Source of the DNA: a virus
Lineage: Duplodnaviria; Heunggongvirae; Uroviricota; Caudoviricetes
Length of the DNA: 42,539 bases
Reading direction: 5' to 3' (one strand)
Virus record (IMG/VR): IMGVR_UViG_2897341779_000003
How positions within the stretch are numbered: the stretch's first letter is position 1; each line of letters starts with the position of its first letter. A program made the position numbers and the translations under genes. This document shows positions 753 to 38,002 of this stretch, piece by piece. Under the pieces are notes generated by a model. The model saw only the letters and a list, made by a program, of their open reading frames with translations. It had not been told where the DNA came from and searched no databases.

Positions 753-1766
753 TTACTCTACTGTGGACACTGTGTGGACACTCTCGGCCTCAGTACCACC
801 TCTTAGCGGATTAAGAGAAATGGCGTCCTGAAGGTACTCTGGCGCAAAATGAGCGTAAACCATAGTTTGCTCAATCCGCGTGTGACCTAGTATCCGTTGT
901 AGCGTGATAATACTTCCTCCATTAATCATGAAATGAGTGGCAAAGCTGTGCCTTAGTGCATGTGTGGCTTGCCCCATTGGCAAATCCGGTTTTATTGCTT
1001 TCATTGTTCGTCTGAAGCGAGGGTAATCAGCATCAGGGAATAAAAAACCTCGTTTGTTATCCGCGATCATTTTGGCAACAGCCTCTGAAATCGGGACGGT
1101 GCGTGGTTTGTTTGTTTTCGTTTTAACAAACGTGACGCGGTTATGGATGATATTTTCTGCTTTCAAACGAGCTGCTTCTCCCCAACGTGCTCCTGTACTC
1201 AGGCAAAGAATCGCAATCTTTTTATTGTCGCCGTCAAGTGCTGCAAGCAGTAAGGCAATTTCTTCCTGTGTGAGATAGCCTGTTTCTGGTTTTTCCTCCT
1301 TAAGCCTCTTTGTCCCTCTGATAGGGTGCTCACCAAAGAATAACTCCGCTTCAATCAGGGCTGTAAACATGCCGCTAATACATGTTAAATCACGATTGAT
1401 ACTCGAAGGTTTAATACCCTGGCTTCTTCGGGTGGCGCAGTACTGGCTGATAAGGGATTTCGTGATTTGAAATGCGCATGGGTCATTCGTTATTTTTGTG
1501 AAGATTTCAATTTTTCCAAGATTAGATTTCCCATGCTCTTCGTGTTTACCCTTTAAATCCCACCAGATCTGTGTCAGTTCCGACAGACGTCGTTTGTCTG
1601 TTGGTTTTGATAGCCATTCTTTATTGTGGTGGTTGTACAACGTGTATTTTTCGAAAGCGACAGCTTCGCTTTTCTTATCAAACTTCCTACGGATGCGTTT
1701 TCCGTTACGTCCAGTAGGGCGGATGTCCACTTCATATCGACCATCATCGAGTTTTTTGATTGCCAT
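753..1766 (-). CDS. int: tyrosine integrase, P2 Int-like (337 aa)
   Basis: 337 aa as in P2 Int; C-terminal HxxR and catalytic Tyr motifs (ALRHSFATH, LGHTRIEQTMVYAH); adjacent to the att core; RBS GGAGGG before the ATG. Confidence 0.9.
   Translation of the reverse strand: MAIKKLDDGRYEVDIRPTGRNGKRIRRKFDKKSEAVAFEKYTLYNHHNKEWLSKPTDKRRLSELTQIWWDLKGKHEEHGKSNLGKIEIFTKITNDPCAFQITKSLISQYCATRRSQGIKPSSINRDLTCISGMFTALIEAELFFGEHPIRGTKRLKEEKPETGYLTQEEIALLLAALDGDNKKIAILCLSTGARWGEAARLKAENIIHNRVTFVKTKTNKPRTVPISEAVAKMIADNKRGFLFPDADYPRFRRTMKAIKPDLPMGQATHALRHSFATHFMINGGSIITLQRILGHTRIEQTMVYAHFAPEYLQDAISLNPLRGGTEAESVHTVSTVE
762..781. promoter_or_regulatory. tandem TGTGGACAC direct repeats, candidate Int arm-type binding sites (P-prime arm)
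   Basis: Two 9-bp direct repeats 11 bp apart next to the att core, overlapping the 3' end of int; P2-type Int arm sites are of the TGTGGACA type. Confidence 0.5.
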
Positions 1767-4063: not shown

Positions 4064-4335
4064 GTATTCGTATTGAAATTGGCGAACGTTATGTCGTTAC
4101 CAGTGACAGCTTTCAGTTTATTCTCCACGAGAAAAAGAGAGCGGAAAGCGGTAAAAACGCCGGTCAGGAATGGCTGGCGGTGGTTGGTTATTACCCGAAA
4201 TTAAGCCAGCTCGTTTCCGGCCTGATGCATCACGATATTCTGACCGGAAGCGCAAAGTCTTTTGCTGATTTAAACGCGCAGGTTGAGCAACTCAGCAAGC
4301 GTTGTTCAGAGGCTTTTGGCTCATATGGCCGTTAA
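4060..4335 (+). CDS. early operon small protein (orf83 position), 91 aa
   Basis: ORF with RBS; overlaps the start of A. Confidence 0.5.
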   Translation: MSIRIEIGERYVVTSDSFQFILHEKKRAESGKNAGQEWLAVVGYYPKLSQLVSGLMHHDILTGSAKSFADLNAQVEQLSKRCSEAFGSYGR

Positions 4336-6616
4336 AGCCTCCGGGCGTTTTGTCCCTCCGTCAGCATTTACCGCAGGCACCGGTAAGACGTTTACCGGTG
4401 CTTATGCATGGAACGCGCCACGCGAGGCCGTCGGGCGCGAAAGACCCCTTACACGTGACGAGATGCGTCAGGTGCAAGGTGTTTTATCCACGATTAACCG
4501 CCTGCCTTACTTTTTGCGCTCGCTGTTTACTTCACGCTATGACTACATCCGGCGCAATAAAAGCCCGGTGCACGGGTTTTATTTCCTCACATCCACTTTT
4601 CAGCGTCGTTTATGGCCGCGCATTGAGCGTGTGAATCAGCGCCATGAAATGAACACCGACGCGTCGTTGCTGTTTCTGGCAGAGCGTGACCATTATGCGC
4701 GTCTGCCGGGGATGAATGATAAGGAGCTGAAAAAGTTTGCCGCCCGTATCTCATCGCAGCTTTTCATGATGTATGAGGAACTCTGCGATGCCTGGGTGGA
4801 TGCGCATGGCGAAAAAGAATCGCTGTTTACGGATGAGGCGCAGGCTCACCTCTATGGTCATGTTGCTGGCGCTGCACGTGCTTTCAATATTTCCCCGCTC
4901 TACTGGAAAAAATACCGTAAAGGACAGATGACCACGAGGCAGGCATATTCTGCCATTGCCCGCCTGTTTAACGATGAGTGGTGGATTAGTCAGCTTAAAG
5001 GCCAGCGTATGCGCTGGCATGAGGCGTTACTGATTGCTGTCGGGGAGGTCAATAAAGACCGTTCACCTTATGCCAGTAAACATGCCATTCGTGATGTGCG
5101 TGCACGCCGCCAGGCAAATCTGGAATTTCTTAAATCGTGTGACCTTGAAAACAGGGAAACCGGCGAACGCATCGACCTTATCAGTAAGGTGATGGGCAGT
5201 ATTTCTAATCCTGAAATTCGCCGGATGGAGCTGATGAACACCATTGCCGGTATTGAGCGTTACGCCGCCGCAGAGGGTGATGTGGGGATGTTTATCACGC
5301 TTACCGCGCCGTCAAAGTATCACCCGACACGTCAGGTCGGAAAAGGCGAAAGTAAAACCGTCCAGCTAAATCACGGCTGGAACGATGAGGCATTTAATCC
5401 AAAGGATGCGCAGCGTTATCTCTGCCATATCTGGAGCCTGATGCGCACGGCATTCAAGGATAATGATTTACAGGTCTACGGTTTGCGTGTCGTCGAGCCA
5501 CACCACGACGGAACGCCGCACTGGCATATGATGCTTTTTTGTAATCCACGCCAGCGTAACCAGATTATCGAAATCATGCGTCGCTATGCGCTCAAAGAGG
5601 ATGGCGACGAAAGAGGAGCCGCGCGAAACCGTTTTCAGGCAAAACATCTTAACCGGGGCGGTGCTGCGGGGTATATCGCAAAATACATCTCAAAAAACAT
5701 CGATGGCTATGCACTGGATGGTCAGCTCGATAATGATACCGGCAGGCCGCTGAAAGATACTGCTGCGGCTGTTACCGCATGGGCGTCAACGTGGCGAATT
5801 CCGCAATTTAAAACGGTTGGCCTGCCGACAATGGGGGCTTACCGTGAACTACGCAAATTGCCTCGCGGCGTCAGTATTGCTGATGAGTTTGACGAACGCG
5901 TCGAGGCTGCTCGCGCTGCCGCAGACAGTGGTGATTTTGCGTTGTATATCAGCGCGCAGGGTGGGGCAAATGTCCCGCGCGATTGTCAGACTGTCAGGGT
6001 TGCCCGTAGCCCGTCGGATGACGTTAACGAGTACGAGGAAGAAGTCGAGAGAGTGGTCGGCATTTACGCGCCGCATCTCGGCGCGCGTCATATTCATATC
6101 ACCAGAACGACGGACTGGCGCATTGTGCCGAAAGTTCCGGTCGTTGAGCCTTTGACTTTAAAAAGCGGCATCGCCGCGCCTCGGAGTCCTGTCAATAACT
6201 GTGGAAAGCTCACCGGTGGTGATACTTCGTTACCGGCTCCCACACCTTCTGAGCACGCCGCAGCAGTGCTTAATCTGGTTGATGACGGTGTTATTGAATG
6301 GAATGAACCGGAGGTCGTGAGGGCGCTCAGGGGCGCATTAAAATACGACCTGAGAACGCCAAACCGTCAGCAAAGAAACGGAAGCCCGTTAAAACCGCAT
6401 GAAATTGCACCATCTGCCAGACTGACCAGGTCTGAACGATTGCAAATCACCCGTATCCGCGTTGACCTTGCTCAGAACGGTATCATGCCGCAGCGATGGG
6501 AGCTTGAGGCGCTGGCGCGTGGAGCGACCGTAAATTATGACGGGAAAAAATTCACGTATCCGGTCGCTGATGGTTGGGGGGGATTCATAGGGCGCTTTGA
6601 TTTTTTCTGTGTTTGA
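4325..6616 (+). CDS. A: replication initiation protein A (rolling-circle nicking endonuclease), about 763 aa
   Basis: Large ORF at the A position; N-terminus MAVKASGRF from ATG 4325 (the ORF-track start 4283 is TTG); size matches P2 A (about 761 aa). Confidence 0.85.
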   Translation: MAVKASGRFVPPSAFTAGTGKTFTGAYAWNAPREAVGRERPLTRDEMRQVQGVLSTINRLPYFLRSLFTSRYDYIRRNKSPVHGFYFLTSTFQRRLWPRIERVNQRHEMNTDASLLFLAERDHYARLPGMNDKELKKFAARISSQLFMMYEELCDAWVDAHGEKESLFTDEAQAHLYGHVAGAARAFNISPLYWKKYRKGQMTTRQAYSAIARLFNDEWWISQLKGQRMRWHEALLIAVGEVNKDRSPYASKHAIRDVRARRQANLEFLKSCDLENRETGERIDLISKVMGSISNPEIRRMELMNTIAGIERYAAAEGDVGMFITLTAPSKYHPTRQVGKGESKTVQLNHGWNDEAFNPKDAQRYLCHIWSLMRTAFKDNDLQVYGLRVVEPHHDGTPHWHMMLFCNPRQRNQIIEIMRRYALKEDGDERGAARNRFQAKHLNRGGAAGYIAKYISKNIDGYALDGQLDNDTGRPLKDTAAAVTAWASTWRIPQFKTVGLPTMGAYRELRKLPRGVSIADEFDERVEAARAAADSGDFALYISAQGGANVPRDCQTVRVARSPSDDVNEYEEEVERVVGIYAPHLGARHIHITRTTDWRIVPKVPVVEPLTLKSGIAAPRSPVNNCGKLTGGDTSLPAPTPSEHAAAVLNLVDDGVIEWNEPEVVRALRGALKYDLRTPNRQQRNGSPLKPHEIAPSARLTRSERLQITRIRVDLAQNGIMPQRWELEALARGATVNYDGKKFTYPVADGWGGFIGRFDFFCV

Positions 6617-7349: not shown

Positions 7350-8891
7350 ATGCCAACAGTTCCAATTTCTATGAGAAAACTTAAAGAAATTCTTAGGCTT
7401 AAATACGGTGTTGGACTCAGCCATCGACAAATTGGTCGTAGTCTTGCAATCTCCCCTTCCGTTGTATCCAGATATGCTAATCGGGCGGCTCAACTTGGCA
7501 TAAAGCAGTGGCCCTTACCTACAGGATGGGATGATACAAAACTAAAACATGCGTTCCTTCAGACCCAGGTTAAGATGAAGAAGCACTCTCTGCCTGACTG
7601 GGCTACAGTACACCGGGAACTGCGTAATAAATGCGTGACGCTGCAGCTACTCTGGGAAGAATACTGTGAGCGTAATCCAGGCGGTTTTTACAGCTATAAC
7701 CATTACTGCCGGATGTACCGTGAATGGCTCAAAACCACTTCACCATCAATGCGTCAGGTACATAAAGCTGGCGAAAAACTTTTCGTTGATTACTGTGGAC
7801 CTACCGTTGGCGTTACCGACCCTGAGACCGGAGAAATAAGAACTGCTCAGGTCATCGTAGCTGTTCTCGGGGCATCAAGTTACACATGGGCAGAGGCCAC
7901 CTGGTCTCAGCAGCTTGAAGACTGGGTGATGAGTCATGTTCGCTGCTTCCAGTGGTTGGGTGGCGTTCCTGAACTTGTTGTTCCGGACAATCTGAAAAGC
8001 GCCACATCCAGGGCATGTAAGTATGATCCTGACGTTAACCCTACCTACCAGCAGATGCTTGAGCATTATAATGTCGCAGTTTTGCCTGCGCGGCCACGTA
8101 AACCGAAAGATAAAGCCAAAGCTGAAGTTGGCGTTCAGGTTGTTGAACGCTGGATCATGGCCCGAATCAGGCATGAGATCTTCTACAGCCTTGCATCGCT
8201 TAATCAGCGCATTCGGGAGTTGCTGGAAAGACTGAATAACAAAATAATGCAGAAGTTGGGTTATTCACGTGCAGAACTCTTCATCCAGCTTGATAAACCC
8301 GCACTGAAGCCTCTTCCTGAAGCCAGTTACAGTTACACCCTGGTGAAGAAAGTCAGAGTTCATGCCGATTACCACGTGGAAATCGACAAACATTACTACT
8401 CGGTTCCATGTTCGCTGTTAGGCCAGCAACTGGAAGCATGGATCTCCGGAGAACTGGTAAGACTCTTCAATCAGGGGCAGGAGGTTGCTGTGCACCCGCG
8501 CAAGCGTACTTATGGCTACAGTACCCGCAACGAGCACATGCCTGAAGCTCATCGACAGCATGCCACCTGGACGCCAGAGCGTCTTCTGGAATGGGCGGGG
8601 CACATAGGCAGTGAAACTCATAGTTATGTGCTTCATATACTGAACTCTCGTCCACATCCGGAACAAAGCTATCGCTTCTGCCTTGGACTCCTGAACCTTC
8701 ATAAAAAATACAGTAAAGCCAGACTTAATGCAGCATGTGCAAGAGCTCTGAAAACAAAGGTATGGCGTCTGTCAGGTATTAAATCGATCCTGGAAAAAGG
8801 TCTGGATAAACAACCTGTTCAGGATCCAAAACCAGATCTGTTATCCACGATGGAACACGAAAACGTACGCGGCAGTGAGTATTACCACTGA
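7350..8891 (+). CDS. istA: IS21-family transposase IstA (513 aa)
   Basis: N-terminal HTH, integrase-core-like middle region; followed by istB with a short gap. Confidence 0.85.
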   Translation: MPTVPISMRKLKEILRLKYGVGLSHRQIGRSLAISPSVVSRYANRAAQLGIKQWPLPTGWDDTKLKHAFLQTQVKMKKHSLPDWATVHRELRNKCVTLQLLWEEYCERNPGGFYSYNHYCRMYREWLKTTSPSMRQVHKAGEKLFVDYCGPTVGVTDPETGEIRTAQVIVAVLGASSYTWAEATWSQQLEDWVMSHVRCFQWLGGVPELVVPDNLKSATSRACKYDPDVNPTYQQMLEHYNVAVLPARPRKPKDKAKAEVGVQVVERWIMARIRHEIFYSLASLNQRIRELLERLNNKIMQKLGYSRAELFIQLDKPALKPLPEASYSYTLVKKVRVHADYHVEIDKHYYSVPCSLLGQQLEAWISGELVRLFNQGQEVAVHPRKRTYGYSTRNEHMPEAHRQHATWTPERLLEWAGHIGSETHSYVLHILNSRPHPEQSYRFCLGLLNLHKKYSKARLNAACARALKTKVWRLSGIKSILEKGLDKQPVQDPKPDLLSTMEHENVRGSEYYH

Positions 8892-8902
8892 TACGGGATC
8901 CA

Positions 8903-9652
8903 ATGATGAATCATCTTTACGAACAACTGACCGCACTTAAACTCACCGGCTTCCGTGATGCGCTTAAAAAGCAACTTGCTCAGCCGGGCACATACCAGGA
9001 GCTGGGCTTCGAAGAACGCCTGTCATTACTGACAGCAGAAGAACTAACCTGCCGTGAAAACAGGAAGGCAGAGCGTCTGATCAAACATGCACGGTTCAGA
9101 CTTAATGCTGAGTTATCAAAGCTGGATTATCGTAACAATAGAGGGCTGGACAGGGCCCTCATCCGTTCACTCAGTCAGGGAAACTGGTTAACCCTGAAAC
9201 AAAATATTTTACTGACCGGGGCCACCGGCAGCGGTAAAACGTTCCTGGCATGTGCACTTGGTCATAATGCCTGCCGACAGGGATACAAGGTCTACTATTA
9301 TCGCCTTAAAGCGCTGATGGAACAGTGCTATCAGGGGCATGCTGATGGAAGATACAGCAAACTTTTGACCAGGCTGAATAATAGCGATCTGCTGCTTCTG
9401 GATGACTGGGGGCTGGAACCTCTCTCATCAGAACAGCGTAGCGACCTGCTGGAAATAGTGGATCTGATGTACCAACGAGGCTCAATCATCGTAGTGAGCC
9501 AGTTGCCGGTGGAAAACTGGTACAAAATGATCGGAGACTCCACACATGCGGATGCCATCCTAGATCGACTGGTTCATGGCAGTATCAAGATCGAACTTAA
9601 AGGAGAATCAATGCGGAAAATACAATCACCGTTGACCGAAGGAGATCAGTGA
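8903..9652 (+). CDS. istB: IS21-family helper ATPase IstB (249 aa)
   Basis: Walker A LLTGATGSGKTF and Walker B LLLLDDWG; DnaC-like architecture typical of IstB. Confidence 0.85.
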   Translation: MMNHLYEQLTALKLTGFRDALKKQLAQPGTYQELGFEERLSLLTAEELTCRENRKAERLIKHARFRLNAELSKLDYRNNRGLDRALIRSLSQGNWLTLKQNILLTGATGSGKTFLACALGHNACRQGYKVYYYRLKALMEQCYQGHADGRYSKLLTRLNNSDLLLLDDWGLEPLSSEQRSDLLEIVDLMYQRGSIIVVSQLPVENWYKMIGDSTHADAILDRLVHGSIKIELKGESMRKIQSPLTEGDQ

Positions 9653-9705: not shown

Positions 9706-11643
9706 TTACTCACCGATCTCCTTCACGGTAATACGCACTTTGCCATCTTTTGCATCTTTTAATATTTGCCACAAAGATTGATATTCATTCTGTATGCTGT
9801 TTTTTTGTATTTCAGTAATTATACTAAAATCATTTTTCGTTACTCTACCTAGATAATAGTTTTTCTTAAATAGTTTGTCTTCTCTGCTTTTAGGAGATAG
9901 CTTAATAAGTTCATGAAAGAAATAAAGATTGTGAGTAAGGATTAATACCTTCTTTGTTAATTCATTTTTTATAATGTGGTGATGAATAATTGATGCGATG
10001 TCGTAGACATAGTTTTGCGATAGACTAGATATTGGATCGTCAATAACAATAAAAATATCCCTGCTATCGGTATCATTTTTATCGGTTTTACCTTTACAGC
10101 ACTCTAAAAAATAAAGAAACGTTATTAGTGTTTTTTCACCTTCGCTAAGAGATCTATAAACATTTTGGTTTTTTGTATGCCCTGGTCGAGATATAATGTA
10201 CATATCTTTTCTTTCTGCATGTTTTTCAATACAAAAACCAGAGATCCCTAGATTTTTTAAATGGGTGTTTATTGAGTCTATCGTAGAATCAATGTTAGAT
10301 ATTTTATCTCGCAATGCTTTTATTGTGAGATTATTTTCTTTTCCTTGTTGCTCAATATTATTTAATTCATCATGAACTTTCTTTTTGATATCAAAGAATT
10401 TTTCTTTGTGTTTGGATAAATTCTCTAAATCATCGCTGCAAAAAGCATGGAGAGCCCCCCAAACTTGTTTTCCGATTTTATTCTCATACTCTTTGAGTTT
10501 TTTAACCTTATCATTTATGTCTCTTATTTTCTTGTTAACAGCGCCTATGCTTTCCTGAACATGATTTTCTAGTTCTTTATCAATTTCTAATGTAACGCAT
10601 GTTGATGGATTGTTGATCTTATCAATAATGTTTATTAAATTTTTTTCTGCAATGTTTTGCAATATTTTAATATTGGAAATAATGTTCTCTTTATCTTTCT
10701 CATTGATTAGTGCACATGATGATATATTGTTTTGTATTTCGTTAAAATGATATATGGTATTTTTCTCATAAACTGACTTTATATCTGAGAGCTGTTTTAC
10801 TTTCTTTGAATAACTTTCGTCAAATATTGATTTAAGGGCATTTAAAAATTCGTGACTAATAGTTTTTTCCTGACAAAACGGACATGTAGAACCGTCTAAA
10901 TAATGTTCTTTACCTTTTTTTACCCAGTCAAGATTATGAAGTTTATTAATGGTTTCTGATAAATAGCTATTGCTTGTATCTATTATAGGTGTTGCTAATG
11001 TATTTACATCATCAATTGATGGGGTATATGGATGTAAAGGAGTTATTAATGCGGTTTCATTGTTTCTATTTTCTAATAGTATAGAGTATTCTTTTGCTAT
11101 ATCATTTAAATTAATAAAGGTGATTGGTGAGGATGATTTTATCATCTCAAAAAAAGGTCTTTTATAGCCAACTTTACCTTTCATTAAGGTTTTTAGTACA
11201 GAGTTTCTGATTGGTTCTGTTTTTTTCCAGATCGATTCGATGTATTCATTTTCTTTTTTTTCCATTTCTGCTTCTAATTTCAATAACACTCCTTTTTTTT
11301 GTCTATATTGCTCTGTGAGTTGCTGTTTAATTGCTTCTTTTTCAATTAATTGTTTTTCAATATCTGCATTTTCTTTACTTAATGTAAAAACACCTTTTTG
11401 TTCCTGTGCATTATAGAAGTTATCTTCAATAAATTTAGTGTTGTAAACAAGAGGTTTGTAATTGTCAAGAAGGGTACATTCACACTCGTTATAATCTGTG
11501 TGTGTAGAGTCGTAGAAATAATTTGAAATGGTAGATTTGCCACAACCATTTTGGCCGTATAGTATGTTTACTCTTTTTTCAAGATTCAGTATTGTGAAGG
11601 CGTCTTTCTTATAACTGGTAACATTTTTTAATCTAAGTTCCAT
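9706..11643 (-). pseudogene. 5' portion (about 639 native codons) of a Rad50/ABC-type ATPase with CxxC hook, RloC/PrrC-like candidate defence gene, truncated by the IS
   Basis: Walker A GQNGCGKST, coiled-coil-like stretches, CPFCQ, ABC-signature-like LSEGEK, Walker B IFIVIDDP, H-loop LILTHN; the last 6 codons and the stop derive from the IS end; about 30% GC. Confidence 0.6.
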
Positions 11644-23819: not shown

Positions 23820-26549
23820 ATGAGCACGAAATTTAAAACCGTTATCACTACTGCCGGAGCCGCAAAGCTGGCAGCCGCCACTGTCCCCGGCGGGAAAAAA
23901 GTAACCCTGTCTGCAATGGCCGTGGGTGACGGTAATGGCAAATTGCCGGTGCCGGATGCCGGTCAGACGAAACTGGTGCATGAGGTCTGGCGTCACGCTC
24001 TGAATAAAGTCAGCGTGGATAACAAGAATAAAAACTATATCGTGGCTGAACTGGTTGTACCGCCCGAAGTGGGCGGCTTCTGGATGCGTGAGCTTGGTCT
24101 GTATGACGATGCCGGAACACTGATTGCGGTATCCAACATGGCTGAAAGCTATAAGCCAGAACTGGCTGAAGGCTCCGGGCGTGCGCAGACCTGCCGCATG
24201 GTTATTATTGTCAGTAACGTGGCGTCCGTTGAGCTGAGTATTGATGCCAGCACAGTGATGGCGACGCAGGATTACGTCGATGACAAAATCGCAGAGCATG
24301 AGCAGTCCCGCCGCCATCCTGACGCCACGCTGACAGAAAAAGGTTTTACTCAGTTAAGCAGTGCAACAAACAGCACCAGTGAGTCATTGGCAGCAACGCC
24401 AAAAGCGGTCAAGGCAGCAAATGACAACGCAAATTCACGTCTGGCGAAAAATCAGAATGGTGCAGATATCCAGGATAAATCAGCTTTTCTGGACAATGTT
24501 GGCGTTACCAGCCTGACGTTTATGAAAAACAATGGCGAAATGCCGGTTGATGCTGATCTGAATACGTTTGGTTCTGTTAAGGCTTATTCAGGTATCTGGT
24601 CTAAAGCAACGTCCACCAACGCAACACTGGAGAAAAACTTCCCTGAAGATAATGCTGTCGGTGTGCTTGAGGTTTTTACTGGCGGCAATTTTGCAGGCAC
24701 GCAACGCTATACCACACGTGACGGAAATTTGTATATCCGCAAACTCATTGGAACATGGAATGGTAATGATGGACCATGGGGAGCATGGCGCCATGTTCAG
24801 GCTGTAACGCGAGCTCTAAGTACGACCATTGACCTTAACTCTCTCGGTGGCGCAGAACATTTAGGTCTATGGAGAAACAGCAGTTCAGCAATAGCTTCTT
24901 TTGAACGACATTACCCCGAGCAGGGAGGAGACGCGCAGGGCATTCTGGAAATTTTCGAAGGTGGGCTATATGGACGCACACAGCGTTATACAACCCGTAA
25001 CGGGACTATGTATATTCGCGGCCTGACAGCCAAATGGGATGCAGAAAATCCACAGTGGGAAGACTGGATCCAAATTGGTTATCAGACCAGTAGTACCTTC
25101 TATGAGGATGACCTGGATGATTTGATGTCTCCAGGTATTTACAGTGTGACAGGCAAAGCGACCCACACCCCAATCCAGGGGCAGTCTGGTTTTCTGGAAG
25201 TCATCAGGCGCAAGGATGGTGTCTATGTTTTGCAACGTTACACGACCACAGGAACCAGCGCAGCTACAAAAGACCGTTTATATGAGCGAGTGTTTCTTGG
25301 TGGCTCATTTAACGCGTGGGGGGAGTGGCGACAGATTTATAACTCAAACTCTTTGCCGTTAGAGTTGGGTATCGGTGGCGCAGTGGCAAAACTCACCAGC
25401 CTGGACTGGCAGACATACGATTTTGTGCCGGGCAGTCTGATAACCGTTCGGCTGGATAACATGACCAATATTCCCGACGGTATGGACTGGGGCGTCATTG
25501 ATGGCAACCTGATAAACATCTCAGTCGGTCCGAGTGATGATTCTGGTTCGGGACGCTCAATGCATGTATGGCGCAGCACTGTAAGTAAAGCCAACTACCG
25601 CTTTTTTATGGTGCGTATTTCAGGAAATCCGGGAAGCCGCACGATCACGACAAGACGTGTGCCAATTATCGACGAAGCCCAGACATGGGGCGCGAAACAG
25701 ACATTCAGTGCTGGCCTTTCTGGTGAACTGTCCGGCAATGCGGCGACAGCAACAAAGCTGAAAACAGCCCGTAAAATTAATAACGTTTCGTTTGATGGAA
25801 CATCAGATATTAACCTGACGCCGAAAAATATTGGTGCATTTGCTTCAGGAAAAACAGGAGACACCGTTGCGAATGATAAAGCCGTTGGATGGAACTGGAG
25901 TAGCGGAGCCTATAACGCAACTATTGGTGGGGCATCAACGTTAATTCTTCATTTTAATATCGGGGAAGGAAGTTGTCCCGCCGCCCAGTTTCGCGTTAAT
26001 TATAAGAACGGTGGTATTTTTTATCGTTCTGCTCGTGACGGTTACGGATTCGAGGCTGACTGGTCTGAGTTTTATACCACAACGCGAAAACCTACAGCGG
26101 GAGATGTCGGTGCACTGCCGTTATCTGGTGGTCAATTGAATGGTGCTCTGGGTATAGGAACATCCAGTGCTCTTGGCGGTAATTCGATTGTTTTGGGTGA
26201 TAATGACACGGGCTTTAAACAAAATGGTGATGGTAATCTGGATGTTTATGCTAATAGCGTCCATGTTATGCGCTTTGTCTCCGGAAGCGTTCAAAGTAAT
26301 AAAACCATAAATATTACGGGGCGTGTTAATCCCTCGGATTACGGTAACTTTGATTCCCGCTATGTGAGAGATGTCAGACTTGGCACACGTGTTGTCCAGA
26401 CCATGCAGAAAGGGGTGATGTATGAGAAAGCAGGGCACGTAATTACCGGGCTTGGTATTGTCGGTGAAGTCGATGGTGATGACCCCGCAGTATTCAGACC
26501 AATACAAAAATACATCAATGGCACATGGTATAACGTCGCACAGGTGTAA
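23820..26549 (+). CDS. H: tail fibre protein (909 aa), conserved N-terminus and a variable repeat-containing C-terminus
   Basis: N-terminal region including the QLSSATNSTSESLAATPKAVK motif shared by P2 H and lambda Stf-type fibres; three internal QRYTTR-G-Y-R-W-W repeats; longer than P2 H (about 669 aa). Confidence 0.85.
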   Translation: MSTKFKTVITTAGAAKLAAATVPGGKKVTLSAMAVGDGNGKLPVPDAGQTKLVHEVWRHALNKVSVDNKNKNYIVAELVVPPEVGGFWMRELGLYDDAGTLIAVSNMAESYKPELAEGSGRAQTCRMVIIVSNVASVELSIDASTVMATQDYVDDKIAEHEQSRRHPDATLTEKGFTQLSSATNSTSESLAATPKAVKAANDNANSRLAKNQNGADIQDKSAFLDNVGVTSLTFMKNNGEMPVDADLNTFGSVKAYSGIWSKATSTNATLEKNFPEDNAVGVLEVFTGGNFAGTQRYTTRDGNLYIRKLIGTWNGNDGPWGAWRHVQAVTRALSTTIDLNSLGGAEHLGLWRNSSSAIASFERHYPEQGGDAQGILEIFEGGLYGRTQRYTTRNGTMYIRGLTAKWDAENPQWEDWIQIGYQTSSTFYEDDLDDLMSPGIYSVTGKATHTPIQGQSGFLEVIRRKDGVYVLQRYTTTGTSAATKDRLYERVFLGGSFNAWGEWRQIYNSNSLPLELGIGGAVAKLTSLDWQTYDFVPGSLITVRLDNMTNIPDGMDWGVIDGNLINISVGPSDDSGSGRSMHVWRSTVSKANYRFFMVRISGNPGSRTITTRRVPIIDEAQTWGAKQTFSAGLSGELSGNAATATKLKTARKINNVSFDGTSDINLTPKNIGAFASGKTGDTVANDKAVGWNWSSGAYNATIGGASTLILHFNIGEGSCPAAQFRVNYKNGGIFYRSARDGYGFEADWSEFYTTTRKPTAGDVGALPLSGGQLNGALGIGTSSALGGNSIVLGDNDTGFKQNGDGNLDVYANSVHVMRFVSGSVQSNKTINITGRVNPSDYGNFDSRYVRDVRLGTRVVQTMQKGVMYEKAGHVITGLGIVGEVDGDDPAVFRPIQKYINGTWYNVAQV

Positions 26550-26552
26550 TTT

Positions 26553-27080
26553 ATGCAGCATTTAAAAAATATTACTGCGGGTAATCCAAAAACTGTTGCC
26601 CAATATCAACTGACAAAAAATTTTGATGTTATCTGGTTATGGTCCGAAGAGGGAAAAAACTGGTATGAGGAAGTAAGTAATTTTCAGGAAGACACGATAA
26701 AGATTGTTTACGATGAGAATAATATAATTGTCGGCATCACCAGAGATGCTTCAACGCTCAACCCTGAAGGTTTTAGCGTTGTCGAGGTTCCTGATATTAC
26801 CGCCAACCGACGTGCTGATGACTCAGGTAAATGGATGTTTAAGGATGGTGCCGTGATTAAGCGGATTTATACGGCAGACGAACAGCTGCAACTGGCGGAA
26901 TTACAGAAGTCAGCTTTGCTTTCCGAAGCTGAAACTATCATTCAGCCACTGGAACGCTCTGTCAGACTGAATATGGCAACAGATGAGGAGCGTAGCCGAC
27001 TGGAAGCATGGGAACGCTACAGTGTTCTGGTCAGCCGTGTGGATCCTGCAAATCCTGAATGGCCGGAAATGCCGCAATAA
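26553..27080 (+). CDS. G: tail fibre assembly chaperone (175 aa)
   Basis: 175 aa immediately after H, as in P2. Confidence 0.8.
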
Positions 27081-27135
27081 GTTGTATGATCTCTGGAGTG
27101 AGCTAACGTATCTATAGCACAGAGTAAAGCCTAAT

Positions 27136-27146
27136 CTGACAGTCTG
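27136..27146. repeat. inverted copy (CTGACAGTCTG) of the 11-bp repeat core CAGACTGTCAG, sitting in the loop of a 10-bp inverted repeat (27115-27124 / 27147-27156)
   Basis: Exact reverse complement of the cores at 27259-27269 and 29569-29579. Confidence 0.6.
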
Positions 27147-27258
27147 CTCTGTGCTAGGAGCGGACTGACCTGCTTCCCGATGATTAATACACAGCTATGC
27201 TAGTAATGTCCGTAGATCGCTGTGTGTTGCATCCATCGGTTGAACTCACAGTCCAAAC

Positions 27259-27302
27259 CAGACTGTCAGCTTTGATTAGATTCTACCTACTCAACCTGTC
27301 AG
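27259..27302. repeat. left copy of an about 45-bp imperfect direct repeat bracketing the G-FI cargo
   Basis: Framework CAGACTGTCAG-c/g-TTTGAT...TGTCAG, with the two TGTCAG elements 32 bp apart in both copies. Confidence 0.65.
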
Positions 27303-27501
27303 ATAAGGTCTGAGCTAATACATCTAATATATGGCTTCGTGCAGGGGACGGCTATCGCGAACGTTAGGCCAGGTATCTGAATACGCACAGTTCACTTGGT
27401 TGTACTTCTTGCACTGATCTGCTATCCCGCACAGCTATTTATAGGTAATCTTCAGTGTATAATCTGCCAACTTATGGAAGCTTGTACAACAGGAGAAATA
27501 T

Positions 27502-28344
27502 ATGAAAAAAGAATTGTTTGGACGTTGCCCGTTTGATCTTGACGAAGATGTAAAAAAAATAGCCGCGATAAATAAATATATCCATGCAAAATTTGAGGAG
27601 CATAAAAATAAAATAGACAACCTAAAGGGTGTGGAACAAAAATTGATGGTCTTACAGTACTTTAATGTACTGAATGAACTTAGTAATCAGGCTATCTCTT
27701 CTTTGAATATAGGAGCCTTTTCAGCATCGGAAGTATTAGCTAGGGTTATAATAGAACAGGCTGCCAATCAATTTTATATAGCAATAGATGATGGCGAAAA
27801 TGCACAAGCATTACTCAAGGCTAGTAAGAAATTAGTTCATAGTAATGGAAAACGGTGGCTGGAGTGTTTAAAATCCAAAGGAATGACTAATCCAGCAGCA
27901 AATGAAAGGATTCGCATGGGAAAAGAACTAACTGATCTATTTAATAGATTGTGGCCAAATACACCTGAATATCCAGGAACCAGAAGACTTTTTGAATTAA
28001 TTGGCTGGGAAACACACTATCATGCCCATTACGTTCCCCTTTGTGATTCAATACATACATTCTCTGATGATATGGTAAATATAGTATCTCTATATAATGC
28101 AATCCAAAGTGATGAAAATACTGCTATCGAATTCATTCTTGCAGTTAAACAAGAAAATAAACGGCTGGCAATTTATAATTTTGTAATTGCTACGGCCCTT
28201 CGGTGTGAGGCCTTAGTAAATGTATTTAACTCTTTAGGTTATCAGGATATTATAACAGAAATGACACCAACAATAGATACAGTCAACCAGACTATAATTC
28301 GATATGATGATTTTGATCATTCCAGAATTGATGATTGTCAATAA
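27502..28344 (+). CDS. hypothetical protein (280 aa), AT-rich cargo gene; candidate phage-defence or superinfection-exclusion effector
   Basis: RBS AGGAG 7 nt before the ATG; candidate -10 TATAAT at 27458-27463; no confidently recognised domain; C-terminal R-x5-H (RYDDFDH). Confidence 0.6.
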   Translation: MKKELFGRCPFDLDEDVKKIAAINKYIHAKFEEHKNKIDNLKGVEQKLMVLQYFNVLNELSNQAISSLNIGAFSASEVLARVIIEQAANQFYIAIDDGENAQALLKASKKLVHSNGKRWLECLKSKGMTNPAANERIRMGKELTDLFNRLWPNTPEYPGTRRLFELIGWETHYHAHYVPLCDSIHTFSDDMVNIVSLYNAIQSDENTAIEFILAVKQENKRLAIYNFVIATALRCEALVNVFNSLGYQDIITEMTPTIDTVNQTIIRYDDFDHSRIDDCQ

Positions 28345-28450
28345 TTAATTGACAGAATACGTACATGCGCAACAACTAGTGATAGTTGACTTATTTTCGC
28401 TCTTGAGAGACAACCATACTCAAATCTCCCACATTGCAGGAGATTTGAAT

Positions 28451-29035
28451 ATGAAAACGTCACCGTGGAATAAAGACCGTACCATCGGTCAAAAAAGGCC
28501 ACTTCAGATATTTCATATCTGGGGGATCCGGATTAGACTTGAGTTGGAAGGTAAAACACGCGATCTAGCTCTGTTCAACATGGCTTTGGACACTAAGCTA
28601 CGGGGCTGTGATTTGGTCAAACTCAAAGTATCAGATGCTGCATATGGCAGTTCTGTCTCAAGCAGAGCAACGGTGTTGCAACAGAAAACCGGCAGCCCTG
28701 TCCAATTTGAGATAACCAAAGGGACAAGGGAAGCGGTTACTGCATTGATAAAGCTCGGCAACTGGCATAGTAAAGGCTTCCTGTTCCGCTCTCGGGTCGG
28801 AACTAACCACCATATATCAACCCGGCAATACAACCGAATTTTTCATGGGTGGGTAGAAAAGCTTGGTCTCGAAGATTCGCTGTACAGCACACATTCCATG
28901 AGAAGAACAAAACCTTACTTAATCTACAAGAAAACCAAGAGTCTCCGGGTGATCCAACTTCTGTTGGGCCATAAGAAACTGGAAAGCACAGTCCGTTATT
29001 TGGGCATTGAAGTCGATATAGAAGGTCTCTTTTAA
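28451..29035 (+). CDS. small tyrosine recombinase, catalytic domain only (about 194 aa), FimB/FimE-like
   Basis: Catalytic residues present in order: Arg (LRGCDL), Lys (QQKTG), His-x-x-Arg (HSMRRT), His (LLGHKK), Tyr (VRYLG); RBS AGGAG before ATG 28451; no N-terminal DNA-binding domain. Confidence 0.7.
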   Translation: MKTSPWNKDRTIGQKRPLQIFHIWGIRIRLELEGKTRDLALFNMALDTKLRGCDLVKLKVSDAAYGSSVSSRATVLQQKTGSPVQFEITKGTREAVTALIKLGNWHSKGFLFRSRVGTNHHISTRQYNRIFHGWVEKLGLEDSLYSTHSMRRTKPYLIYKKTKSLRVIQLLLGHKKLESTVRYLGIEVDIEGLF

Positions 29036-29057
29036 GTTATGGGGGCTGATTTTATAT

Positions 29058-29447
29058 TCAATAGCGTATGCTCATCGAAGAAATAAACTCATAAAATGTA
29101 AAGACAGCCAGCAAAAACATACAGATAAAGATAAGGGAAATAGCACACTTAACTAAGGGCTGAACCCCCCGAGGTGTTCCCCATGGTTTAGACATTTGGG
29201 TTATAACCCAAATAAATAAGGCCACAAAACAGCAAACACCAGCCAATCCGAGCAGAGATATTATGACAACTCCAAACAGATTTCCAACATCTAGTTTATC
29301 TGTTTTTGCAACTAGGGTTAACAAACCAGCAATAATAGTTGCAATCGATATTCCCGCAATGGTTGTGAGATCGGCGATAACAGCCAGTTTTTCTTTAGTA
29401 TTTCCTTGAGTAAAGACCTCTAAAATTGATTTCATGGAAATAACCAC
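29058..29447 (-). CDS. small integral membrane protein (129 aa, 3-4 predicted transmembrane helices)
   Basis: Strongly hydrophobic segments throughout; AT-rich; opposite strand to the surrounding late genes. Confidence 0.55.
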   Translation of the reverse strand: MVISMKSILEVFTQGNTKEKLAVIADLTTIAGISIATIIAGLLTLVAKTDKLDVGNLFGVVIISLLGLAGVCCFVALFIWVITQMSKPWGTPRGVQPLVKCAISLIFICMFLLAVFTFYEFISSMSIRY

Positions 29448-29568
29448 CTACTATCGATTATATTCAGGAGCTTTTTATCATAACGATATCAGATAGATAA
29501 GGACATTGTAATATTTTGGATGATTTAAACTTGCTTTTGTAACTCTAATGTCCACTTTTCGCTCAAAG

Positions 29569-29612
29569 CAGACTGTCAGGTTTGATAGCATTTGGGCTAT
29601 GTAAATTGTCAG
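29569..29612. repeat. right copy of the about 45-bp imperfect direct repeat bracketing the G-FI cargo
   Basis: CAGACTGTCAGGTTTGATAG...TTGTCAGG; same internal spacing as the left copy. Confidence 0.65.
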
Positions 29613-29765: not shown

Positions 29766-30956
29766 ATGAGTGACTATCATCATGGCGTGCAGGTGCTGGA
29801 GATTAACGACGGCACCCGCGTCATTTCCACCGTATCCACTGCCATTGTCGGCATGGTCTGCACGGCCAGCGATGCGGATGCGGAAACCTTCCCCCTCAAT
29901 AAACCGGTGCTGATTACCAATGTGCAAAGCGCAATTGCAAAGGCCGGTAAAAAAGGCACGCTGGCGGCATCGTTGCAGGCCATCGCTGACCAGTCAAAAC
30001 CGGTCACCGTTGTCGTGCGCGTGGAAGACTGCACCGGTGATGACGAGGAAACGAAACTCGCGCAGACCGTTTCCAATATCATCGGCACCACCGACGAAAA
30101 CGGTCAGTACACCGGACTAAAAGCCCTGCTGGCGGCGGAGTCGGTAACCGGTGTTAAACCGCGTATTCTCGGTGTGCCGGGACTGGATACCAAAGAGGTG
30201 GCTGTTGCACTGGCATCCGTCTGTCAGAAGCTGCGCGCTTTCGGATATATCAGCGCATGGGGCTGTAAGACCATTTCCGAGGTGAAAGCCTACCGCCAGA
30301 ATTTCAGCCAGCGTGAGCTGATGGTCATCTGGCCGGATTTCCTCGCATGGGATACGGTCACCAGTACCACCGCTACCGCGTATGCCACCGCCCGTGCGCT
30401 GGGTCTGCGCGCTAAAATCGACCAGGAGCAGGGCTGGCATAAAACGCTGTCCAACGTCGGGGTAAACGGTGTTACCGGCATCAGCGCATCTGTATTCTGG
30501 GATTTGCAGGAGTCCGGCACCGATGCTGACCTGCTTAACGAGTCAGGCGTCACTACGCTGATTCGCCGCGACGGTTTCCGATTCTGGGGTAACCGTACCT
30601 GCTCTGATGACCCGCTGTTCCTCTTTGAAAACTACACCCGCACCGCGCAGGTACTGGCTGACACGATGGCTGAGGCGCACATGTGGGCGGTGGACAAGCC
30701 CATCACCGCAACGCTGATTCGCGACATCGTTGACGGCATCAATGCCAAATTCCGTGAGCTGAAAACAAACGGCTATATCGTGGATGCGACCTGCTGGTTC
30801 AGCGAAGAATCCAACGATGCGGAAACCCTCAAGGCCGGAAAACTGTATATCGACTACGACTATACACCGGTGCCTCCTCTTGAAAACCTGACCCTGCGCC
30901 AGCGTATTACCGATAAATACCTGGCAAATCTGGTCACCTCGGTTAACAGCAATTAA
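29766..30956 (+). CDS. FI: tail sheath protein (396 aa)
   Basis: 396 aa as in P2 gpFI. Confidence 0.9.
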   Translation: MSDYHHGVQVLEINDGTRVISTVSTAIVGMVCTASDADAETFPLNKPVLITNVQSAIAKAGKKGTLAASLQAIADQSKPVTVVVRVEDCTGDDEETKLAQTVSNIIGTTDENGQYTGLKALLAAESVTGVKPRILGVPGLDTKEVAVALASVCQKLRAFGYISAWGCKTISEVKAYRQNFSQRELMVIWPDFLAWDTVTSTTATAYATARALGLRAKIDQEQGWHKTLSNVGVNGVTGISASVFWDLQESGTDADLLNESGVTTLIRRDGFRFWGNRTCSDDPLFLFENYTRTAQVLADTMAEAHMWAVDKPITATLIRDIVDGINAKFRELKTNGYIVDATCWFSEESNDAETLKAGKLYIDYDYTPVPPLENLTLRQRITDKYLANLVTSVNSN

Positions 30957-36469: not shown

Positions 36470-36496
36470 AAAAAATAAGCCTGCGTAAGGGAGATT
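36470..36496. other. prophage attR core (27 bp; 2 substitutions relative to the attL copy)
   Basis: AAAAAATAAGCCTGCGTAAGGGAGATT; forms the terminator of the adjacent sRNA gene. Confidence 0.7.
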
Positions 36497-36556
36497 ACAC
36501 AGGCTAAGGAGGTGGTTCCTGGTACAGCTAGCATTTTATGGGTTATGTTTTTCAGC
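36470..36556 (-). ncRNA. cyaR: CyaR (RyeE)-like Hfq-dependent sRNA, about 87 nt; its terminator overlaps the att core
   Basis: Minus-strand sequence GCTGAAAAACATAACCCATAAAATGCTAGCTGTACCAGGAACCACCTCCTTAGCCTGTGTAATCTCCCTTACGCAGGCTTATTTTTT agrees with my recollection of E. coli CyaR apart from 2 positions in the terminator stem. Confidence 0.7.
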
Positions 36557-36640
36557 GAAACGGATGATAACCTTAATAAATGCAGCTGTATGTGATCGGT
36601 TTCTAAGAATTTTCCATCCGGGAAAAATAATCGAAATTAA

Positions 36641-38002
36641 TCACTTACCGTGGGGGTTACGCGTGGTTTCCCCGGAGAAATTACGCATCAGCAGCGCGTA
36701 ATTTAGCTCAAGATCCTGCGGCACCGGGAGCCACACAGTATAACCATCGCCTGGTGCGACCGGCATCGCTTCACCTTTGGCGTTTTCCATATGCTCAAGG
36801 GTAAAGTTAATGTTGCCTTGCGGCGTCATCAGCTCAAGGCTGTCGCCAACGGAGAATTTATTTTTCACCGCTACCGCCGCGAGCTCCCCCTTGCGCTCAC
36901 CGGTAAACTCACCAACAAACTGCTGGCGGTCAGAAACCGAATAACCGTATTCGTAGTTCTGATAATCGTCGTGGGTATGACGACGCAGGAAACCTTCGGT
37001 ATAGCCACGATGCGCCAGACCTTCCAGCGTTTCCAGCAGGCTGGTATCGAACGGTTTGCCCGCAGCGGCGTCATCGATAGCTTTACGGTAAACCTGCGCG
37101 GTGCGTGCGCAATAGTAGAAAGATTTGGTACGGCCTTCGATTTTCAGCGAATGCACGCCCATTTTGGTCAGGCGTTCAACATGGGCGATGGCGCGCAGAT
37201 CTTTCGAGTTCATGATGTAAGTGCCGTGCTCATCTTCAAACGCGGTCATATACTCGCCCGGACGCTGGGCTTCTTCGATCATAAACACTTTGTCGGTTGG
37301 CGCGCCGATACCCAGCGTCGGCTCAACATTTTGCACCGGAATCGGCTCGTACTTGTGTACGATGTTGCCGACGTCATCTTCTTTCCCTTCCTGGACATTG
37401 TACTCCCAGCGGCAGGCGTTGGTGCAGGTGCCCTGGTTCGGGTCGCGCTTGTTGATATAGCCAGAGAGCAGGCAGCGACCGGAGTAGGCCATGCACAGCG
37501 CGCCGTGAACGAAGATTTCGATCTCCATATCCGGCACCTGATTGCGGATCTCTTCAATCTCTTCCAGTGACAGTTCGCGAGAGAGGATCACGCGGGTCAG
37601 ACCCATTTGCTGCCAGAATTTCACCGTCGCCCAGTTTACGGCGTTAGCCTGTACCGAGAGGTGGATTGGCATTTCCGGGAAGTGTTCACGCACCAGCATA
37701 ATCAGCCCTGGATCGGACATAATCAGCGCATCCGGCCCCATTTCCACCACCGGTTTCAGGTCACGGATAAAGGTTTTCAGCTTGGCGTTGTGCGGTGCAA
37801 TGTTGACCACGACATAAAACTTTTTCCCCAGCGCGTGGGCTTCATTGATGCCGAGCTGAAGATTTTCGTGGTTGAATTCGTTGTTGCGTACACGCAGGGA
37901 GTAACGCGGCTGGCCCGCATAAACAGCATCTGCGCCATAAGCGAAAGCGTAACGCATATTTTTCAGCGTTCCCGCCGGGGAAAGGAGTTCCGGTTTAAAC
38001 AT
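36641..38002 (-). CDS. yegQ: U32-family peptidase/hydroxylase, YegQ-like (453 aa)
   Basis: 453-aa ORF with RBS GAGAG; host-like GC content; U32 family and yegQ identity recalled from the N-terminus MFKPELLSPAGTLKNMRYAF and its position next to CyaR. Confidence 0.75.
   Translation of the reverse strand: MFKPELLSPAGTLKNMRYAFAYGADAVYAGQPRYSLRVRNNEFNHENLQLGINEAHALGKKFYVVVNIAPHNAKLKTFIRDLKPVVEMGPDALIMSDPGLIMLVREHFPEMPIHLSVQANAVNWATVKFWQQMGLTRVILSRELSLEEIEEIRNQVPDMEIEIFVHGALCMAYSGRCLLSGYINKRDPNQGTCTNACRWEYNVQEGKEDDVGNIVHKYEPIPVQNVEPTLGIGAPTDKVFMIEEAQRPGEYMTAFEDEHGTYIMNSKDLRAIAHVERLTKMGVHSLKIEGRTKSFYYCARTAQVYRKAIDDAAAGKPFDTSLLETLEGLAHRGYTEGFLRRHTHDDYQNYEYGYSVSDRQQFVGEFTGERKGELAAVAVKNKFSVGDSLELMTPQGNINFTLEHMENAKGEAMPVAPGDGYTVWLPVPQDLELNYALLMRNFSGETTRNPHGK

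Follow-up and report, generated by a model that had tools for sequence, protein, structure and literature searches.

The virus record IMGVR_UViG_2897341779_000003 is a 42,539-nucleotide stretch of DNA, hereafter called the window, that was identified as an Escherichia coli P2-like prophage, in which the late genes run in the order H, G, FI, FII, and the tape-measure gene. Genes G and FI are separated by a low-GC cargo island (27166–29549; 31–48% GC, compared with 52–59% in the backbone), which contains the gene of a small tyrosine recombinase. Here we describe the recombinase, the family to which it belongs, the short palindromic sites between which the family genes are nested, and the cassette arrays in which these sites recur. 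The island and the adjoining part of the late region contain the following genes:

23820–26549: late gene H
26553–27080: late gene G (tail-fibre assembly)
27502–28344, plus strand: cargo gene of a 280-residue DUF5677 protein (Pfam PF18928, E=8e-10; phrog_4167)
28451–29035, plus strand: small tyrosine recombinase of 194 residues; family homology covers 28451–29017, and the last five codons, the stop codon, and the downstream sequence are foreign
29058–29447, minus strand: cargo gene of a predicted membrane protein of 129 residues (phrog_4155, E=1e-84)
29766–30956: late gene FI (sheath)

The interval between G and FI has the properties of the Z/fun hotspot of P2, which contains variable low-GC DNA between conserved backbone borders. 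Homology to the P2 backbone stops at position 27165 (133 phage records) and restarts at approximately 29544–29550 (238 phage records). The first-pass annotation of the window had described the recombinase gene as embedded in the late tail operon; its place is instead the low-GC island, which separates one late operon, ending with G, from the next, starting before FI. RefSeq calls the membrane-protein gene from an internal start, giving 125 residues. Its product has no match in Pfam, NCBIfam, or PADLOC, and PADLOC returned zero matches for the three island proteins. The entire island is present in 35 of 5426 complete E. coli genomes, each time in the G–FI hotspot and in a single orientation, and was also found in several IMG/VR contigs. 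In one of the 35 genomes (NZ_CM160072.1), the island is split by an IS3-family insertion.

The recombinase is predicted to consist of a catalytic domain

The recombinase open reading frame (ORF) starts with ATG and encodes 194 residues, and the RefSeq protein WP_001447266.1, annotated as 'tyrosine-type recombinase/integrase', has the same start and end. The protein scores 65 bits against Pfam PF00589 (cutoff 27.1), with residues 35–184 aligned to positions 21–166 of the 172 in the profile. The catalytic set is complete (R51, K79, H148-x-x-R151, H174, and Y183) and aligns with Arg-I, HxxR, H, and Y of XerD. In a structure predicted by AlphaFold2 (AF2) from an alignment of 75 sequences that included a 211-residue sister family (predicted local distance difference test score 87.5), approximately 19 unstructured residues are followed by the first helix of the catalytic domain, which starts at residue 20. 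In structural comparisons, the model fits the catalytic halves of XerA, XerH, Cre, VchIntIA, Tn1549 Int, and lambda Int. The template modelling score (TM-score) is approximately 0.7 when normalised to the query and approximately 0.4–0.5 when normalised to the 275–350-residue targets, and the latter values are lower because the targets possess an additional N-terminal domain. An in-frame upstream extension of the ORF to position 28349 contributes no domain, and a single-sequence phmmer search against PDB gave no match. Judged from its sequence and predicted structure, the ORF is a genuine tyrosine recombinase with a catalytic domain alone, in agreement with the first-pass annotation, which had recognised the full active site and the missing N-terminal domain.

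The nearest profiles are those of the Xer and integron groups, yet their scores are far below every family cutoff. The best of the XerC, XerD, XerA, and XerS equivalog profiles gives 49 bits (cutoff 220), and the recombinase lacks the N-terminal domain of the Xer proteins. The integron integrase models TIGR02249 and NF011946 give 18 bits (cutoffs 265 and 435), and the length of the protein leaves no room for a core-binding domain or for the insertion of IntI. With 194 residues here and 200 in the family, the recombinase resembles FimB and FimE in its size of approximately 200 residues without a core-binding domain, but the FimB/FimE model NF007371 (PRK09871) gives 22.9 bits against a cutoff of 222.

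The recombinase family is conserved and occurs beside unrelated genes

The family gene is present in 844 of the 5426 E. coli genomes and in many Gammaproteobacteria. Among the matches listed, approximately 120 homologues have 72–92% identity, a range that spans Enterobacterales to Idiomarina and Cycloclasticus, and nearly all are 200 residues long; relatives at 44–57% identity have 198–211 residues. Clustering at 50% identity gives 332 clusters that match at E<=1e-30. The ratio of nonsynonymous to synonymous substitution rates (dN/dS) between clades is 0.02–0.08, which indicates that the family is under strong purifying selection. For comparison of the family and its flanks, 80 loci from 80 species were fetched. 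In these loci, 46 of the 47 copies scored as intact by the ORF filter have exactly 200 residues and the start MxxSPWNK, and homologues with the shared start come from dozens of genera.

Identical or near-identical recombinases adjoin wholly different genes in more than 90 contexts. Their neighbours include TIR, SMC/AAA_15, SIR2 with DUF87, DUF3800, and arsenic or copper operons. The family genes reside in prophages, integrative and conjugative elements (ICEs), plasmids, and islands, and several loci carry two recombinase copies 3–5 kb apart in the same orientation.

The recombinase gene is nested between two half-sites

Intact genes of the family are nested in an imperfect palindrome, between its halves LH (GTCCGCT-YY-TCGCTCA-YA-GCGGAC) and RH (GTCCGCT-TY-GTGCCAG-RA-GCGGAC), each of which is a putative 24-bp site made of 8-bp inverted arms and an 8-bp centre. 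The left end of the unit reads (AAC)GTCCGCTTCTCGCTCATAAGGGAC... and the right end ...CAGCCCTGTGCCAGAAGCGGAC(GTT), and the two ends are inverted repeats of each other. According to an all-against-all comparison of the flanks of 93 copies, the conserved region reaches to between −53 and −67 upstream of the ATG and to between +40 and +47 downstream of the stop codon. With at most three mismatches, the LH 16-mer was found in 79 of 93 copies, mostly starting at −62/−63 from the ATG, and the RH 15-mer in 76 of 91 copies, almost all ending at +41/+42 after the stop codon; the rate of LH/RH motifs in random windows from the same loci is 0.8%. The unit has terminal inverted repeats at sharp ends, as do insertion sequences (IS) and miniature inverted-repeat transposable elements (MITEs). 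In the window, the DNA directly before the gene contains two features:

28385–28411, plus strand: degenerate LH half of the recombinase unit, reading GTTGACTTATTTTCGCTCTTGAGAGAC (GTTGAC...) in place of the family consensus GTCCGCTTCTCGCTCATAAGGGAC
28415–28453, plus strand: 39-bp inverted repeat with 15-nucleotide arms and a 9-nucleotide loop, which pairs the Shine-Dalgarno (SD) sequence GGAG and the ATG (RNA fold −16.3 kcal/mol, z = −6.6)

The SD/AUG hairpin is conserved across clades with compensatory changes and has a counterpart in about 50 loci of the family; both SD and AUG are paired in 41 of 53 unique sequences. In IS elements, including IS10 and IS50, fold-back hairpins block the translation of read-through transcripts, and the hairpin of the recombinase gene probably acts in the same way. 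A 'solo' copy of the 39-bp inverted repeat was considered as a recombination site and rejected, since the match, in locus L015, proved to be part of a recombinase pseudogene on the minus strand that is internally deleted and has its loop flipped. In this pseudogene (L015:4859–5066, E. coli C289), the 9-nucleotide loop of the SD/AUG repeat is flipped relative to both flanks and reads TGCAATGTG for CACATTGCA in the orientation of the gene. The flip could have resulted from template switching at the palindrome or from a tiny inversion.

The sister family, which has 211 residues, approximately 52% identity, and mostly environmental members, keeps the SD/AUG hairpin and an RH-like sequence, GTGCCARAAGCNGAC, after the stop codon. 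The retention of the site motif supports a functional link between the enzyme and the site. In an environmental genome (L134:1–5631), the sister recombinase is located directly after a gene set of GASH, DO-GTPase1, DO-GTPase2, and GAP1-N1 and directly before LysR, MFS, and methyltransferase cargo. An approximately 60% identical homologue in an IMG/VR contig (L123:5057–5611) has a different inverted pair, GGTTAGCGACCG ... CGTCGCTAACC, followed by CCAGAAGCTGC. Diverged recombinase clades may possess their own site variants.

Gene-less elements separate cassettes in arrays

A motif scan identified elements of approximately 64 bp in which both ends of the recombinase unit are joined without the gene, in the order LH, a loop of 16–20 nucleotides, and RH. 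An nhmmer profile built from 16 gene-less elements produced 322 matches in approximately 100 loci. After the removal of overlapping opposite-strand matches, 111 full elements, 78 RH, and 62 LH were on the strand of the recombinase, and 6, 5, and 3, respectively, were on the other strand, which gives an orientation bias in the arrays of 251 plus to 14 minus. The 110 unique full elements have AAC/GTT outer edges, conserved C.C and T.T mismatches in a potential 24-bp stem, and centres of LH and RH that differ from each other (TCGCTCA and GTGCCAG) and are conserved across the set. Covariation within the inner stem is significant, since at two pairs 0 of 1000 shuffles gave a value as high as the one observed. 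The elements carry no annotation, and no Rfam model matches them. Using blastn, we detected elements in 1599 of the 5426 E. coli genomes, with a median of 1 and a maximum of 5 per element-bearing genome.

The 184 intervals between elements have a median length of 1.5 kb, corresponding to cassettes of approximately 0.3–7 kb, and their 351 ORFs form 304 clusters. Accessory cargo includes MFS, GNAT, AraC, SDR, LysR, and glyoxalase, and defence cargo includes Lamassu, Septu, CBASS, SIR2, PD-T4-2/3, NsnA, GmrSD, and AriA. No inversion of cargo alone between unchanged flanks was found among the shared cassettes, and the reversed matches are entire array segments.

Cargo junctions lie at fixed borders

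The hotspot of the window is bordered by half-sites, and its left part contains additional site-related sequences:

27115–27156, plus strand: P2-backbone hairpin after G, TAGCACAGAG ... CTCTGTGCTA, conserved in P2, L-413C, and vB_YpM_22
27142–27165, plus strand: RH half-site GTCTGCTCTGTGCTAGGAGCGGAC, the left fixed border (nhmmer match 27132–27172, model 44–83, E=2e-4)
27166–27207, plus strand: 42-nucleotide module TGACCTGCTTCCCGATGATTAATACACAGCTATGCTAGTAAT, here the sole filling of an RH-to-LH interval
27208–27310, plus strand: LH remnant GTCCGTAGATCGCTG at 27208–27222, then a degenerate second P2 right flank that includes CAGACTGTCAG at 27259–27269
29550–29573, plus strand: LH half-site GTCCACTTTTCGCTCAAAGCAGAC, the right fixed border (nhmmer match 29544–29581, model 7–44, E=2e-5)

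The RH border has 16 of 17 bases equal to the right end of the recombinase unit. The loop of the hairpin at 27115–27156 holds the 11-mer CTGACAGTCTG at 27136–27146, and copies of the 11-mer CAGACTGTCAG are located at 27136–27146 (minus strand), 27259–27269, and 29569–29579. The first-pass annotation had put forward pairs of these 11-bp repeats as recombination substrates. The repeats are real, and their place is within the larger half-sites of the hotspot borders, in which they form the inner arms (GCAGAC/GTCTGC plus TGTCAG).

The degenerate copy of the right flank in positions 27254–27302 matches 29564–29612 at 71%, and the segment 27166–27310, which combines an 'empty cassette' module with this duplicate, looks like traces of earlier events. 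In other loci, related copies of the 42-nucleotide module stand before an LH half, at a cargo end or directly ahead of a recombinase unit. As a 42–50-nucleotide sequence of the form TGACCTGCTYCC...ATTAATA...GTAAT, the module recurs directly before LH halves and is sometimes the sole content between RH and LH. Copies were found in L023 (from 6716), in L031 and L041 (directly before the recombinase unit), in L017 (approximately 4967–5008), and in L095 (from approximately 3190).

Bracketing of cargo by RH and LH was also found in other viral contigs and at the Qin-type lambdoid hotspot between a DUF977 gene and hok. Two E. coli strains that carry different cargo in the Qin-type hotspot share backbone sequence that ends with ...GCGGAC on one side of the cargo and restarts with TCGCTCA... 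on the other. The backbones of P2, L-413C, vB_YpM_22, and the window, which carry different cargo, likewise part at identical points, as do loci L016 and L017. When the same cargo is present in different contexts, identity starts with the first base past ...GCGGAC even where the last bases of RH differ (L031/L059, L020/L077, and L017/L095). The island of the window is 96.6% identical over 1.9 kb to a Buttiauxella array (L023), and the shared cargo begins with the base after GCGGAC; the sequence upstream of it is P2 gene G in the window and a complete 64-bp element in L023. A blast-based reading, according to which cassettes carry the loop and RH of the upstream element, was rejected, since, in base-level alignments, these elements are not alike and the sequences become identical only past RH. 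At the right junction, the homology shifts at LH or within it. The outer arm (GTCCGCTYY) is variable or accompanies the cargo, and TCGCTCA is where the context restarts. Because the breakpoints are fixed and lie beside non-identical copies of the repeat, a site-specific event is favoured over homologous exchange.

The recombinase copy of the window is damaged

Homology of the window copy to the family ends at position 29017, and the final 12 codons (DDALEISESIEV) are replaced by IEGLF just after Tyr183. The RH half of the unit is lost. Five changes (S21F, S48T, L105W, D109G, and N164S) affect positions with a conservation of 90% or more in the other copies, and dN/dS relative to the nearest relative is 0.59, calculated from few changes. 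In tyrosine recombinases, the segment after the catalytic tyrosine mediates contacts between subunits. Therefore, we consider an inactive window copy somewhat more probable than an active one. The copy probably arrived within the cassette island and is now decaying, as its altered 3' end and flanking sites suggest. The damage to the 3' end and the loss or degradation of the flanking sites, owing to which the copy may be inactive, had not been foreseen in the first-pass annotation.

A putative cassette-moving system and alternative explanations

Based on the nesting of the recombinase gene between LH and RH, the co-oriented elements, and the fixed junctions, we consider it fairly probable that the family recombines LH and RH sites and moves cassettes, with a logic similar to that of integrons and a different enzyme and different sites. 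The recombinase would bind the GTCCGC/GCGGAC repeats and catalyse site-specific insertion, excision, or exchange of cassettes at LH/RH sites. The components would be those of integron logic, namely a recombinase, attC-like palindromes, and a pool of cassettes, with the enzyme and sites unrelated to IntI and attC. The substrate may be a duplex or a folded single strand, and it is the covariation of the inner stem alone that hints at folding. The comparative evidence backs, for the family, the earlier suggestion that the recombinase acts on local sites rather than on att. A broader proposal is more tentative, and we give it slightly less than an even chance. It states that there is a second, integron-independent system of cassette capture, in which a catalytic-domain-only recombinase of approximately 200 residues within attC-like palindromes builds and exchanges arrays of accessory and anti-phage genes. 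The system would supply the missing mobilisation for the P2 Z/fun and lambdoid replication-to-hok hotspots across Gammaproteobacteria, and sister families would act likewise elsewhere.

Several observations weigh against cassette movement by the recombinase family. All of the evidence is comparative, and we saw neither recombination products nor circular junctions nor empty sites. A synthetic query of joined flanks detected no empty P2 G–FI hotspot in 1749 E. coli genomes with G–FI flanks, and the shortest filling in the same genomes was approximately 0.4 kb (H154). As the P2 hotspot is never empty in these genomes, excision is undocumented. Many hotspots bordered by RH and LH lack a recombinase, and approximately 15 of the 80 recombinase copies are pseudogenes. 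The left junction lies at the outer end of RH and the right junction at or inside LH, a reproducible asymmetry that does not fit a textbook staggered exchange. In the unique elements, covariation of the outer arms is absent, whether the arms of a single element are paired or RH(i) is paired with LH(i+1), so that hairpin folding is supported for the inner stem only. The cargo ORFs are found on both strands (186 minus and 179 plus), unlike those of integron cassettes. Furthermore, the loci were chosen for carrying the recombinase, and the enrichment of elements in them is set only against the blastn median per E. coli genome.

The sharp ends with terminal inverted repeats in approximately 90 unrelated contexts are also what would be expected of a selfish mini-transposon, a 0.7-kb unit that moves itself alone through its 10–13-bp terminal inverted repeats (AACGTCCGCTTCT ... 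AGAAGCGGACGTT). The 64-bp elements would then be derivatives of the MITE type, in which both ends are joined and the interior is gone, and the cassette swaps would be a by-product of homologous recombination. The SD/AUG fold-back hairpin, which is a typical IS device, and the numerous pseudogene copies agree with this explanation. However, the elements in arrays are nearly all co-oriented (251 versus 14), and islands are bounded not by whole elements but by halves, with RH at the left end and LH at the right end. The identity of cargo from the first base after RH, despite differing RH bases, is unexpected for a crossover in shared homology. The copy number is low (median 1 and maximum 5 per genome by blastn), and no target-site duplication was seen, although no systematic search for one was made. 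We regard the mini-transposon as unlikely, with roughly one chance in five of being correct. The first-pass annotation, which rightly saw a small recombinase acting on local sites, was wrong about its kind when it likened the protein to the FimB/FimE-type invertases. Such an enzyme would flip a local segment between inverted repeats and switch neighbouring genes, and its size class, the missing core-binding domain, the bracketing of the island by inverted RH and LH halves, and the presence of cargo ORFs on both strands are compatible with that role. Flipping is nevertheless very improbable given the PRK09871 score of 22.9 bits against 222, the different LH and RH centres conserved in 110 elements, the co-oriented array sites (251 plus versus 14 minus), the reversal of whole array segments and never of cargo alone, and the single orientation of the island in 35 of 35 E. 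coli genomes.

A different function altogether would be a three-gene defence or exclusion system, in which the recombinase-like protein, the DUF5677 protein, and the membrane protein act together with no role in DNA rearrangement. The three genes are found as a group in 35 E. coli genomes and several IMG/VR contigs, the locus is a known defence hotspot, and a preprint picked a DUF5677 gene as a defence candidate to test. Near-identical recombinases lie beside unrelated genes in more than 90 contexts, however, the membrane-protein gene is beyond the truncation point of the recombinase unit, and PADLOC recognises none of the three proteins; the three-gene system is likewise very improbable. That the gene is a pseudogene stump of a longer integrase, the possibility singled out for checking in the first-pass annotation, has a negligible probability. 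Its sole attraction is the in-frame extension upstream to 28349, in which no domain was found. The family has 200 residues and one conserved start in dozens of genera, its distant relatives have 198–211 residues, it is under strong purifying selection, and the window copy is damaged at its 3' end and not at its 5' end.

Relation to known systems

The putative cassette-moving system shares with integrons a tyrosine recombinase physically tied to arrays of unrelated, promoter-poor accessory and defence cassettes. It also shares with them co-oriented imperfect palindromes of approximately 60–70 bp, whose inverted boxes, both outer and inner, and mismatches are conserved, whose loop varies, and whose outer edges read AAC...GTT. 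The cargo overlaps as well, for example, in GNAT, glyoxalase, and defence systems. The presence of co-oriented palindromic sites between cassettes (110 elements, a ratio of 251:14, and 184 cassettes) is a resemblance in architecture only. The enzyme has approximately 200 residues and lacks the core-binding domain and the IntI-specific insertion, the boxes are GTCCGC/GCGGAC and not RYYYAAC/GTTRRRY of attC, with just the AAC/GTT edges resembling attC, and the recombinase gene is located inside one of the palindromes, not beside attI. Whereas integron cassettes are co-oriented with a common promoter, the cargo ORFs here lie on both strands (186 minus and 179 plus), and the arrays reside in phage, ICE, and plasmid hotspots. 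The putative system is thus integron-like in logic, yet lacks the features that define integrons: IntI, the attC consensus, and co-oriented ORFs.

FimB, FimE, and HbiF are also tyrosine recombinases of approximately 200 residues that lack an N-terminal core-binding domain and act on nearby sites. The family described here differs from them in sequence, has no short invertible promoter segment, and is associated with co-oriented sites in arrays. In the pdif modules of Acinetobacter, cargo is bracketed in many contexts by inverted pairs of short tyrosine-recombinase sites, as it is here; those modules rely on host XerC/XerD and dif-like 28-bp sites, in contrast to the element-borne candidate enzyme and unrelated sites of the present system. 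Terminal inverted repeats, an SD/AUG-sequestering hairpin, and short gene-less derivatives with two ends are shared with IS and MITEs, from which the units differ in having a tyrosine recombinase instead of a DDE or HUH transposase, a strong orientation bias, and half elements at the borders of islands.

According to the review PMC8987985, inverted repeats around fun permit site-specific exchange, for which phages and enterobacterial genomes were proposed as partners (Nilsson, Karlsson, Haggard-Ljungquist, 2004, Mol Biol Evol 21:1). The locus is the same as that described here, and so, apparently, are the repeats; the summary given in PMC8987985 contains no recombinase name, gene-less elements, arrays, or nested recombinase. 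In a 2026 study that covered thousands of P2 and P4 elements, the mechanism of the swap was still called unknown. Full-text searches of the open-access literature turned up no publication in which a recombinase is assigned to these repeats or the gene-less elements or arrays are described, and as far as we can tell, the wider pattern of recombinase, elements, and cassettes has not been described before.

The recombinase family is a candidate enzyme for the exchange of defence and accessory genes between phages and bacteria, and the borders of the P2 hotspot now have a concrete candidate enzyme and a defined pair of 24-bp sites. If cassettes are moved by the family, a compact system of recombinase and sites that works like an integron would be added to those known, and the presence of common cassettes in unrelated phages, ICEs, plasmids, and islands would be explained. 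The 64-bp element would then be a sequence marker for new accessory and defence cassettes, and the enzyme a very small recombinase for engineering. If the unit is merely a selfish mini-element, it would still represent a class of IS-like elements, so far undescribed, whose enzyme is a tyrosine recombinase.

Other features of the window

Outside the late region, the prophage contains the following genes:

753–1766, minus strand: full-length Int with Int_N and Phage_integrase domains
4283–6616: replication gene A

The separate full-length Int at 753–1766 had been correctly pointed out in the first-pass annotation. Gene A contains the sequence GCGCCTCGGAGTCCTGTCAATAAC at 6176–6199, which presumably resembles the nick site of the P2 origin. 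A fourth copy of the 11-mer CAGACTGTCAG, at position 5987 inside gene A and 190 bp upstream of 6176–6199, was taken as a chance occurrence.

The second P2 cargo hotspot, from gene A to the portal gene (7350–9652, 9706–11643), contains an IS21-type pair composed of an IstA-like protein (rve and Mu-transposase C-terminal domain, 513 residues) and IstB (249 residues). Beside the pair is the gene of a 645-residue AAA_13 ATPase, for which PADLOC gives a match to its candidate system PDC-S06 (E=5e-208). Immediately beyond the right end of the prophage is the gene of the small RNA CyaR/RyeE (36473–36558, minus strand; Rfam RF00112, 100 bits), which is followed by a peptidase U32 gene at 36641–38002. 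The prophage probably occupies an attachment site adjacent to cyaR.

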